Below, piece after piece: positions 21,386 through 23,989 of a stretch of DNA of 24,691 bases. Made by a program: the position numbers and the translations under genes. The stretch comes from Chiloscyllium plagiosum (Eukaryota), in NCBI RefSeq assembly GCF_004010195.1, contig NC_057749.1:7585416-7610106 (forward strand). Direction: 5' to 3'. How positions within the stretch are numbered: position 1 is the first letter of the stretch; each line of letters opens with the position of its first letter. The notes beneath the pieces are model-generated. The model did no database searches. It was not told where the DNA came from and worked only from the letters and a program-made list of their open reading frames with translations.

Positions 21386-21974
21386 TTGTCCTGAGCACCA
21401 CATTTTAGGAAGGATGTGAATACATTGGAGAGTGTGAAGGGGAGATTTATGGCAATGGTTCAAGGGATGAGGACCATCAATTATGAGTATTACTTTATGA
21501 AGTTGGGGGTATGTACCTTGAAAAGATGGCAGCTAAGGGGAGATTTGATAGAAGTTTTTAAAATCTGAAGTGGTCTGAATAGTATAGGTAACAAAGCTAT
21601 TCCCACCTGTAAAAAGATCAAGAACTAGAGGGCATTGATTTAGAGAAAGCAATGCAAGGTAAGAAAAACGATTTTCGCACAGTGAGTAGTCCAGGTTTGG
21701 AATGCATTGGCTGGAAGGGTGGAGGAGGAACATTCAATTGATGCAATCAAGAAAATATAGTTTATATTTAAATAAACATCCAACGTGCAGGGTTATAGGA
21801 CAAGGCAGATATTTGGAAAAAAGTCAAAATGCTCAGGGAGCCAGTGCAGACAAAGAGTCAAACAGCATGGAAACAGACCCTTCAGTCCTGAAGAAGGGCT
21901 TATGCCCGAAACATCGATTCTCCTGCTCCTTGGATGCTGCCTGACCTGCTGCGCTTTTCCAGCAACACATTTTC

Positions 21975-22012
21975 AGCTCTGAGGAAGGGTCACCTGACCC
22001 GAAACGTTAACT
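21975..22012 (+). ncRNA. Minimal hammerhead motif, family C type
   Basis: agct-CTGAGGA-a-GGGTCA-cc-TGACCC-GAAA-C-GTT-aact: core intact, perfect inverted helix II arms, AACGTT palindrome. Confidence 0.7.
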
Positions 22013-22413
22013 CTCTCTACAAGGATTTCAGTGAGTCCCTCTCTCACTGCACACCCCAAGTCATCTCCTCTGCACAGAAACTCTTCAGCCGCGTTCTCAA
22101 ACAGACTCGCTACCACAGCCACATCTCCTTCCTCAGCACCTGCCTACGGAACCGACTGACCCCGCACGGACTCCGGACTACGTTCCGACCGACAAAATTT
22201 GGACCCAACCAGGACAACCAGTACCTACAACAAATCTGAAGCCTCCAGCAACAGACCTCCCTCCGGATCCTCCGCTCCACACTTGCAGCCATGCGCCGCT
22301 ACCTACATTCCCTGCAATTAGACCTACCCCAGCTCAGGACAACACTCTCACAGACCTGTAAAGGACCTCTACTGTTCTTCATCCACAGAAGAATCTTTAC
22401 ACTAAACAAACAG

Positions 22414-22449
22414 ATTTCTGAAGAAGGGCTTATGCCCGAAACGTCGATT
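22414..22449 (+). ncRNA. Minimal hammerhead motif, family A type (intact core)
   Basis: attt-CTGAAGA-a-GGGC-ttat-GCCC-GAAA-C-GTC-gatt, with a predicted cut after C22445. Confidence 0.7.
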
Positions 22450-23989
22450 CTCCTGCTCCTTGGATGCTGCCTGACCTGCTGCGCTTTTCCAGCAATACAT
22501 TTTCAGCTTCAGTCCACTTGTATATGCTGACCAGATATCCCAATCTGACCCTAGTCCCATTTGACAAAAATTTGGCCCTTCCTCTTCATGTACCCATTCA
22601 GATGCCTTTTAAATGTTACAAGTTCACCCACCTCCAGCACTTCCTCTGGCAGCTCGCTCCTTGGATGTAACACCCTCTACATGAAAAGCTGTCCCTCAGA
22701 TCCCTTTCAAATCTCTCCCCTCTAACCTTAAAGCTATGACCTCTAGTTTTGGACTCCCCTACACTTGGGGAAAAGACCTTGGCTAATCACCCTATCCATG
22801 CCCCTCATGATTTCATAAACATTTGTAAAATCACCCCTCAGCCTGCAATACTCCAGGAAAAAGCTGGGGCTTTTTTCCAGCCTCTCCCTAAATCTCAAAC
22901 CCTCCAGCAACATCCTTGTATATCTTTTCTGCATCCTCTCAAGTTTAACAACATATTTCCTAGAGATGCATACAAAGAATTGTACATAGTAATCTAAATG
23001 TTTGCTCACCAATGCCCATACAGCCTAAACATGATACTGCAGTTCTTATACTCATTGTACTGACCAATGAAAGCAAGCGTGTCAAATACCTCCTTCACCA
23101 CCCTGCCTAATGCGAGTCCACTTTCCATGAAATATGTACCTGCACCACCAGATCTCTTTGTTCGGCAGGACTCCCCAGGGACACACCATTAACTGCATGA
23201 GCCCTGCCTTACCAAAATGTAACTCCTCATACTTATCAAAATTAAACTCTGTCTGCCACTCCTTGACCATCTGCTAACTTACTAACCAGGTCTCCCACAT
23301 TCACACCCAAATCATTTATATAACCTACGAAAAGCAGTGGACCCAGCATTGATCTTTGTGGCACACCATTGGTCACAGGGCTCCAGTTCGAAAAGCAATC
23401 CTCCACCACCACCTTCTGTCTCCTACCTTCAAGCCAATTTTCTATTCAAATAGCTAGCTCTCCCTGGATCCTATGTCATTTACTAACCAGTCTATCACCT
23501 TGTTGAATGCTTTGCTGAAGCCTATACAGACAATGTCTATTGGTCTGCCTTCAATCTTCCTTGTCACCTCTTCAAAAAACTCAATCAAATTAGTGAGTCA
23601 TGATTTCTAGTGCACAAAGCCATGATGGGCTGAGTGACTTCTTTCTACACTGTAACAATTCTGTGATTGTGTCAGTAAACTGATGGCATTAAAGTCAATT
23701 TTCTAGATTAGTATTGCAAGACCTTCAAAATACAGGTAAATGGTACAGGATCACCTTGAATCATACACAACAGTTGGTGTGAACTTCAAGAAGGTGCAAA
23801 AAAAAAAGTTAACTAATCAAATTTTTTCTTTCAAATCTGGCAAAGTGGCAATTATCATCTAAGTGAAACTCTATGGATTTGCTAAGATGACATGAATAGA
23901 GGAATCTTTGTTTCCAAAAGTATAAACTCAAATCCATTTCATAAAAAAAAGGAAGGTTTGGCATTTACAAAGAACCTTAGCCTGTTCCA

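Follow-up and report, generated by a model that had tools for sequence, protein, structure and literature searches.

When a short stretch of DNA carries a hammerhead ribozyme in each of its direct repeats and no reverse transcriptase (RT), is it a retrozyme, or is it a damaged copy of something more familiar? The question is raised by a locus in the genome of Chiloscyllium plagiosum. The window, that is, the whole stretch of 24,691 nucleotides of contig NC_057749.1 that was analyzed, contains a compact unit with three hammerheads, and a first-pass annotation made from the letters alone described it as a young, retrozyme-like unit that would represent either an undescribed shark family or a one-off switch of template between two families. 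The unit is most likely a known sort of element, namely, a rearranged copy of a Penelope-like element (PLE).

A single insertion in a host repeat

The insert occupies positions 21889 to 22506 of the window and, as annotated, measures 618 bp and is framed by two copies of the 9-bp sequence CTTCAGTCC (Table 1). The sequence on both of its flanks belongs to a host repeat. What does this repeat look like when the insert is missing? In contigs assembled from three public runs (3, 4, and 2 contigs, respectively), position 21888 is joined straight to position 22516 and the insert is skipped; in two of the three runs, a single A stands between the two sides of this join. The genome also contains one exact paralogous empty site, at C3:120936890-120936912, which is known as a matched string only. 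Since insert-free copies of the host repeat exist, the stretch from 21889 to 22506 is one insertion event: the 9-bp target site duplication (TSD) is real, and the 618 bp came in together.

Table 1. Features of the unit and of its target site, in window coordinates
Feature	Position	Strand	Remarks
TSD, left copy, 9 bp (CTTCAGTCC)	21880..21888	+	Last C is common to the first hammerhead core
5' family A tail (pLTR piece, 91 nt)	21888..21978	+	Minimal core 21888-21915; predicted cut after 21915
Family C patch	21979..22010	+	Core 21979-22005; predicted cut after 22008
Family A N-terminal ORF piece, 403 bp	22011..22413	+	TGA in frame at 22237-22239
3' family A tail	22414..22508	+	Core 22418-22445; predicted cut after 22445
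TSD, right copy, 9 bp	22507..22515	+	First two bases overlap the tail end

Is the insertion also young? In a tree built from the ORF piece (described below), the private branch of the window copy is 0.027, which is not below the family median of 0.019, and that part of the annotation is not supported. The stop codon carried by the window copy is absent from most of the related contigs of the public runs. In base composition, the unit stands out from its surroundings, with a GC content of 52% versus 43% for the window.

Tails, direct repeats, and hammerhead cores

The unit begins and ends with a tail of the family that we call A. The two tails have in common a direct repeat of 91 nt (21888-21978 and 22418-22508) that is 98% identical, the only mismatches being at 21913/22443 and 21966/22496, and a hammerhead lies at the head of each copy. 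The annotation had given the same length, the same number of differing sites, and the same placement of the hammerheads. The 3' tail starts with ATTTC (22414), a discrete 5' end that recurs among tails of this kind, and it finishes with ..TTTTCAGCT, the shorter of the two 3' ends that are usual in family A.

A hammerhead pattern consisting of CTGANGA, a G-rich helix II, and GAAAC matches the unit at 21888, 21979, and 22418, so all three of the hammerheads first noticed are found by pattern as well, and none of 100 shuffled sequences contained any match (0/100). A fourth match to the pattern lies elsewhere in the window, at 6632. How closely do the three cores in the unit follow the minimal hammerheads of PLEs? 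The criteria set out in part of PMC4209133 are CUGANGA, an extra base before helix II, a G10.1-C11.1 pair, GAAA, and a palindrome at positions 15.2 to 16.2. An extra base following position 9 and a G10.1-C11.1 pair are found in each of the three cores. The palindrome, ACGT, which forms helix III in a dimer, is intact in the cores at 21979 and 22418. In the core at 21888, this 4-nt palindrome is broken by the difference at 21913, as had been remarked on at the outset, and this is the sole point on which that core departs from the published description. The equivalent cuts predicted for the two family A cores are indeed 530 nt apart.

Searches with the Rfam hammerhead models returned no match to the cores, either at the gathering thresholds or at E <= 10. 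That minimal cores go unscored is to be expected and does not tell against the motif; the hammerhead call is based on the published criteria for the minimal type, not on the Rfam models. Folding of the cores as single molecules predicts helix II only, which is likewise expected for the minimal type. A minimal type I hammerhead in a terminal repeat is a feature of PLE membership that is present here, and so are pseudo-LTRs arising from partial tandem copies, a layout found also at three related loci (L002, L006, and L069).

The ORF piece and its relatives

Between the tails lies a piece of the N-terminal coding region of family A, which matches many copies in the genome at 94 to 96%. It begins about 12 codons into the ORF, and the usual start codon is missing. 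As annotated, one frame runs from an ATG in the tail, at 21934, to 22413 and is open through the ORF piece except for a single stop codon. The in-frame ATG, however, is peculiar to this copy; it is an accident, because the stretch that has been replaced upstream of the ORF piece (see below) differs by 64 nt from that of other copies.

Where is the RT? There is no RT sequence inside the 618-bp insert, just as had been claimed for it. The closest annotated proteins come from carpet sharks, and one of these begins MPSLKKLSSSLYKDF.. and runs into the ORF piece of the window. Pfam gave no match for the N-terminal ORF pieces. At locus L012, the ORF extends into a segment whose homologues score 32.9 and 35.0 bits with the RVT_1 model, for which the cut-off is 29.6. 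Judging from these homologues of the L012 continuation, the autonomous relatives in family A appear to encode an RT. Along with the pseudo-LTRs, the tail that bears the hammerhead, and the features of the ends (described below), the RVT_1 homologues mark family A, as far as sequence can tell, as a Penelope-like element. At locus L024, an 85-amino-acid open piece upstream of the tail may resemble the ends of PLE EN, the GIY-YIG endonuclease with which the ORF of autonomous canonical PLEs terminates.

A patch from a second family

The stretch between the 5' tail and the ORF piece comes from elsewhere. Here, 28 to 33 nt of a family C hammerhead stand in place of about 92 nt found in other family A copies, which comprise the optional 35-nt extension of the tail, the 5' untranslated region (UTR), and the start codon. 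Family C is an abundant relative with the same tail architecture. Both borders of the patch are ambiguous: on the left, TCAGCTCTGA (21973-21982) is common to families A and C, and on the right, CTC(TC) at 22011-22015 is common to C and the ORF. The first reading of this region, as a family C hammerhead attached at a sequence shared by A and C and replacing the usual end of the pLTR, proved correct. Among 14 aligned family A copies, 12 have the canonical order of tail, about 92 nt, and ORF, and none (0/14) has the C patch.

Does the patch record a one-off switch between families? The annotation had proposed a check on whether the joints are unique, and we ran it over the 3.56-Gb genome, allowing up to 3 mismatches for the two joints of the patch. 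The C-to-ORF joint has a single match, which is the window itself, and the exact ORF-to-tail joint (discussed below) is also unique, but the A-to-C joint has two matches, the window and locus L032. In L032, a longer piece of family A runs into a complete family C tail, with TCAGCTCTGA exactly at the joint. Since the family A tail of L032 is of another subtype, showing 3 differences over its initial 45 nt, and its C tail is complete, the A-to-C joint probably arose twice, going by these two copies. A one-off template switch between families thus fits the A/C patch.

Preferred ends of family A tails

Where do family A copies end? At the 3' side, 9 of 12 copies stop at CAGC(T..) and 2 of 12 stop 35 nt further on. 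Two alternative 3' ends, differing by an optional tail of 30 to 40 bp, are a PLE feature and are present here at the level of the family; the unit itself has the short end. The PLE traits described in part of PMC8557442 are pseudo-LTRs, an adjacent inverted and truncated copy, and a tail of 30 to 40 bp. In vitro work on a lizard PLE has shown that reverse transcription starts at two internal sites that bound the tail, that the first 172 nt of the ORF are needed in the template (the 5' end of the ORF being the binding site), that both DNA strands are extended, and that hammerhead mutations are without effect on insertion (PMC11167929). The 3' ends of family A match the "tail" between the two internal RT start sites of PMC11167929, and the inverted neighbors of related loci match the pattern given for PLEs in part of PMC8557442.

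Set beside canonical EN+ PLE units (PMC11167929 and parts of PMC4209133 and PMC8557442), the shark unit is alike in its direct pseudo-LTRs and in having a type I hammerhead of the minimal sort within the repeat. The 3' ends 35 nt apart, the 5' truncation and inverted neighbors in sister loci, and a duplication of several base pairs are further points in common. The unit differs in that the ORF is missing after about 400 nt and in that the tail extension, 5' UTR, and start codon have been swapped for the hammerhead piece of another family.

The 5' side of the tails was surveyed by counting exact 30-mers genome-wide. With C before ATTYC, 26,012 tails read through this point; 5,912 tails have a G before ATTYC, and 3,954 have an A or T. 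Read-through therefore accounts for 72% of intact tails (26,012/35,878), and the ATTYC end is a minority class. In the sample of loci, the family A core has 78 distinct contexts, and in 31 of them the canonical sequence upstream breaks off after exactly six letters. A G precedes 26 of these 31 six-letter stops, but that sample was biased by the query that fetched L073 to L090, the other subset gives 8/13, and the genome-wide counts supersede this figure. The excess of G before ATTYC may suit a copied cap, and other causes are possible too. L1 copies reportedly have an extra G at capped 5' ends.

Short forms elsewhere in the genome

Is the window copy alone in having lost the remainder of its ORF? 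Among loci fetched by similarity to the unit, supplemented by an exact pattern search, there are 18 ORF-to-tail joints in 17 loci, and no two are alike. The pattern search contributed 9 exact cases, including the window, against 0 in the control; an extra joint, at C3:57429931, is known as a matched string only. At 11 other places, the ORF-to-tail joint of the window is spanned at 79 to 89%, each time with a junction of its own. Of the 18 joints, 10 start with ATT[C/T]C or ATCC on the tail side. The ORF-side ends are spread over an AC-rich stretch of about 45 nt, except for one outlier about 105 nt further on, and overlaps of the TTCC(T)/CAT type occur at some joints. Locus L027 consists of a left half only, ending at AAACAG like the window.

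The surroundings of these copies are also informative. Inverted copies adjoin the 5' side in 10 of 14 related loci, and five short copies are 5'-truncated and adjoin an inverted tail at that end. A search for TSDs around the other short copies yielded no clear duplications, their 5' sides being mostly inverted copies. In full-length-type copies, the zone in which the ORF breaks is stable, with 97 exact 32-mers spanning it genome-wide. Counting the copies long enough to include this part of the ORF, short and full-length types stand at about 9 versus 97.

Are the short forms inherited from one another, or are they made afresh? A tree of the ORF piece, obtained by a quick search, holds 35 rows (13 short and 22 full type), all of them loci fetched by similarity to the unit. 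It requires 7 changes of label to account for the short copies, and no branch reaches 95; the subfamilies are unevenly sampled, and the signal is too small to decide how many origins there were. A cluster of six short copies is nevertheless present, with an SH-aLRT value of 94. A lineage of short elements was considered for this cluster and dropped, because the marker of the cluster is also present in 26 full-length-type copies, 16 of them identical across the zone and 10 with one or two small changes. The cluster thus reflects a full-length subfamily missed in the sample, not descent of short copies from short copies. Given that all joints differ, that the zone is stable, and that the marker is shared, the short forms look as if they were re-made at each event and not inherited.

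What makes the joints? Hammerhead cleavage was tried as a candidate and rejected: no joint (0) lies at a cut site, and the C patch ends 2 to 7 nt beyond its own site. Splicing was rejected as well, since the joints lack precision and are found upstream of the candidate GTAAGT, which is about 40 nt downstream of the zone. A literature search on template jumping by PLEs and on short forms of shark PLEs returned nothing specific among the matches listed.

Probable template switching at preferred ends

In composition, the unit is a family A tail, followed by 28 to 33 nt of family C hammerhead, 403 bp of family A ORF, and a second family A tail. Such a composite is probably best explained by one target-primed insertion of a non-autonomous cDNA made by the RT of an abundant shark PLE (family A) that switched templates at preferred ends. 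We infer the 5' end of the RNA, the template jumps, and the order of those jumps from the DNA joints only. The RT would start at its usual internal site, where the tail ends (..CAGCT), copy to the 5' end of the RNA at ATTYC, and then move to a second template, entering it in the AC-rich zone some 400 nt into the ORF. From there, it would copy this ORF template back to about codon 12, slip onto a family C RNA at CTC/CTCT, pass from the C RNA to another family A tail at the TCAGCTCTGA that both have, and halt at the 5' end of this last tail RNA.

There is a parallel in the chimeric retrocopies produced by template jumping of LINE RTs, in which, according to part of PMC2104539, pieces of RNA are fused in one insertion with one duplication and the joints lie at RNA ends or at short shared sequences. 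In the shark, the enzyme would be a PLE RT, and the pieces are PLE RNAs of two families, not cellular transcripts.

Some observations sit less easily with the template-switch model. The patch ends, as mentioned, 2 to 7 nt past the C cut and not at a recognizable border between modules. The switch onto C has just 3 to 5 nt of shared sequence to explain it. Finally, the six-copy cluster (SH-aLRT, 94), taken alone, would suit a lineage of short elements.

What could the unit do once it had inserted? With no RT, no start codon, none of the sequence normally upstream of the tail, and one broken palindrome, it is most likely inert, dead on arrival. As an inert, rearranged copy of a retroelement, the locus itself would be of little weight. 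The family-level pattern, on the other hand, is of some use for understanding PLE mobility: an ATTYC end that often follows a G (5,912 copies), a pair of 3' ends separated by 35 nt, a zone some 400 nt into the ORF where breakpoints recur, and joints between families. These in-genome footprints fit the internal-initiation model, so far based on one lizard element in vitro, and they suggest that the PLE enzyme jumps templates at RNA ends.

Other routes to the same structure

Might a longer family A copy have inserted first, to be rearranged later at the level of DNA? The remainder of the ORF would have been removed by a microhomology-mediated deletion, and a C tail would have donated the patch by gene conversion or repair. 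There are short shared sequences at both borders of the C patch and overlaps at some ORF-to-tail joints, and tens of thousands of PLE tails are available as possible repair donors. Against such a history, the same two breakpoint zones turn up at 17 separate loci, yet among full-length-type copies the zone is stable, and the breakpoint on the tail side is a discrete end that is seen also in thousands of solo tails. The five short copies that are 5'-truncated against an inverted tail show a pattern of insertion, not of later decay. For the unit as a whole, we consider later rearrangement unlikely; for the C patch taken alone, later patching at the DNA level may also be possible.

There is an outside chance that the short form is a replication product in its own right, made over and over again. 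In that case, a capped, sub-genomic PLE RNA, starting at ATTYC, taking in the hammerhead tail, and reaching about 400 nt into the ORF, would be copied end to end or round a circle, with a fresh joint each time. Such an RNA would carry every cis signal, namely, the RT start site, the protein-binding 5' part of the ORF, and the hammerhead. It would amount to a retrozyme-like parasite borne by PLEs, in which something other than the ribozyme makes the junction of the circle or concatemer, and the window copy would be a case of RNA recombination between families. Among the known non-autonomous derivatives of PLEs is MRC1 of Chlamydomonas, a short element that, as described in part of PMC8557442, has pseudo-LTRs and shares its 3' end with an autonomous PLE. 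MRC1, however, is a propagating family according to the same part of that source, whereas among the shark short forms no joint is shared and nothing points to one copy having descended from another.

Is the unit a retrozyme?

Finally, could the unit propagate as a retrozyme-like element proper? Its transcripts would be cut at both family A hammerheads, the C core, at a distance of 90 nt, serving as the dimer partner, and would be ligated into a circle of about 530 nt to be copied by a PLE RT. In outline, the unit does resemble a retrozyme: there are hammerheads in both direct repeats, no RT, and a duplication. It also keeps the 5' part of the ORF that is needed for use as a template (PMC11167929), and part of 10.64898/2026.07.22.740005 links PLE tails to vertebrate retrozymes. 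The short forms are not rare, with 9 exact short joints versus 97 exact full-type sequences, and six of them cluster in the tree. That cluster, though, has its marker in 26 full-length-type copies, as mentioned, and all 18 of 18 joints differ, with none at the hammerhead cut site, which is where a circle made by the ribozyme would join. The dimer palindrome of the 5' core is broken, and hammerhead mutants did not affect insertion in vitro (PMC11167929). We regard this route as very doubtful.

The features expected of retrozymes were looked for one at a time. (i) Tandem units are absent: a tandem repeat of the unit was found in 0 of the 14 related loci laid out (L006 has an extra upstream tail), the window itself has one 530-bp period plus 91 nt, and TRF, with a longest period of 500, finds nothing. 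(ii) The canonical form of the type I hammerhead, in which helix I is closed and the loops make contact, is absent: Rfam gave no match at E <= 10 and folding gave helix II only. (iii) Low GC and a highly self-paired RNA are absent, the GC content being 52% and the fold of the 530-nt RNA having a z score of -0.40 relative to 100 shuffles, 31 of which fold as well. (iv) No one unit structure is shared across copies, since the 18 joints differ and the C-to-ORF joint is single. (v) As for linear and circular RNA of unit length, none of the joints listed from three contig runs whose RNA nature is a guess (15 listed, with 51 more) is of the "go back" kind, and one raw RNA run had 0 reads on the window; neither result bears on expression or on circles. 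The unit fails features (i) to (iv) as examined. The proposal of an undescribed retrozyme-like family is not supported either; short forms are present in 17 loci, but their joints all differ, there is no single lineage, and the features that could be tested are lacking.

How does the unit compare with the retrozymes already described? Metazoan non-LTR retrozymes, as presented in parts of PMC7229834 and 10.64898/2026.07.22.740005, are likewise non-coding, hammerhead-bearing, akin to PLE tails, and resident in genomes that hold PLEs. What is their own, in the same parts of these sources, is an arrangement in short tandem arrays of 150- to 450-bp monomers with canonical type I hammerheads, a low GC content, and abundant, highly paired circular RNAs. 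The shark unit, in contrast, has one 530-bp period, minimal hammerheads, 52% GC, no excess of structure, and a joint that differs from copy to copy. Plant LTR retrozymes have the same geometry, with two hammerhead-bearing direct repeats, a non-coding middle that measures a few hundred bp, and a duplication; peculiar to them, according to part of PMC4918200, are type III hammerheads, repeats of about 350 bp, a PBS and a PPT, 4-bp duplications, and mobilization by Gypsy elements. The shark unit instead has the type I order (CUGANGA, helix II, GAAA, cut, and open helix I), 91-nt repeats, and a 9-bp duplication. Caution is therefore in order: a short non-coding core flanked by direct repeats, each with its hammerhead, is not on that account alone a retrozyme.

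That the assembly merely collapsed reads of different PLE tails into a chimeric stretch is scarcely credible: PLE arrays are known to trouble assemblies (part of PMC8557442) and none of the public runs examined spans the whole stretch, but a random collapse would not give an exact 9-bp duplication in a host repeat that is interrupted precisely where its empty-site forms close.

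Copy number and host repeat

Tails of family A, the abundant shark Penelope-like element (PLE), are far more often found alone than attached to coding sequence. Genome-wide, 35,878 intact family A hammerhead 30-mers were counted, versus only about 97 exact copies that extend to the 5' part of the ORF, so that solo tails exceed ORF-bearing copies by hundreds to one. The contig depth profile across the 618-bp insert has the same excess. The insert itself is embedded in another abundant repeat (window 21854-21888 and 22516-22555), the depth of which, summed over contigs, reaches a maximum of about 39,000 in one bin and the copies of which diverge considerably immediately to the right of the insertion point.

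Fold-back joints and tail structure

How do the tails meet one another? Across the genome, family A tails are found paired head-to-head, meeting at a GGAATTCC palindrome immediately 5' of the hammerhead (see the table), and the 5' end of the tail is a hot spot for fold-back joints. At one locus related to the insert, L067 (G000:C9:21199706-21202782), the AC-rich end of the PLE ORF is folded back on itself. This locus has two differing ORF-to-tail joints, one per strand, both of which enter the tail within the hammerhead rather than at its start.

Canonical tails (window 21930-21978; copies such as those at the related loci L002 and L066) also carry two potential pairing arms, GGATGCTG.. and ..CAGCATC(T), which could form a long hairpin enclosing both alternative 3'-end sites. 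Both arms are present in the related family C too and, being identical in the two families, display no covariation between A and C.

Coordinates of examples of head-to-head family A tail pairs in the genome, and of features in the window
Feature	Position	Strand	Remarks
Head-to-head tail pair	G000:C1:18547204/18547230	-/+	GGAATTCC palindrome
Head-to-head tail pair	C1:19034657/19034683		GGAATTCC palindrome
Head-to-head tail pair	C9:59655020/59655054		one of several among matches to the ORF-to-tail joint
Inverted hammerhead piece	window ~6400-6450		within PLE nest
Family A 3' UTR and tail	window ~6460-6755		within PLE nest
Diverged second tail, degenerate core	window ~6756-6890		immediately after the preceding tail
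5S rRNA match	window 1428-1535	-	45.2 bits (gathering score, 38)

Other PLE-related and repeat features

Besides the insert, the window contains another nest of PLE ends at 6400-6890. The family A N-terminal ORF is also found in two annotated shark gene models, P0001 and P0003, under the names "mucin-2-like" and "prostatic acid phosphatase-like isoform X1"; these models are probably annotation artefacts or exonised pieces of the element. Elsewhere in the window, the 5S rRNA match lacks some of its acceptor-end pairs; it is possibly a 5S pseudogene, or else the head of a SINE derived from 5S rRNA.
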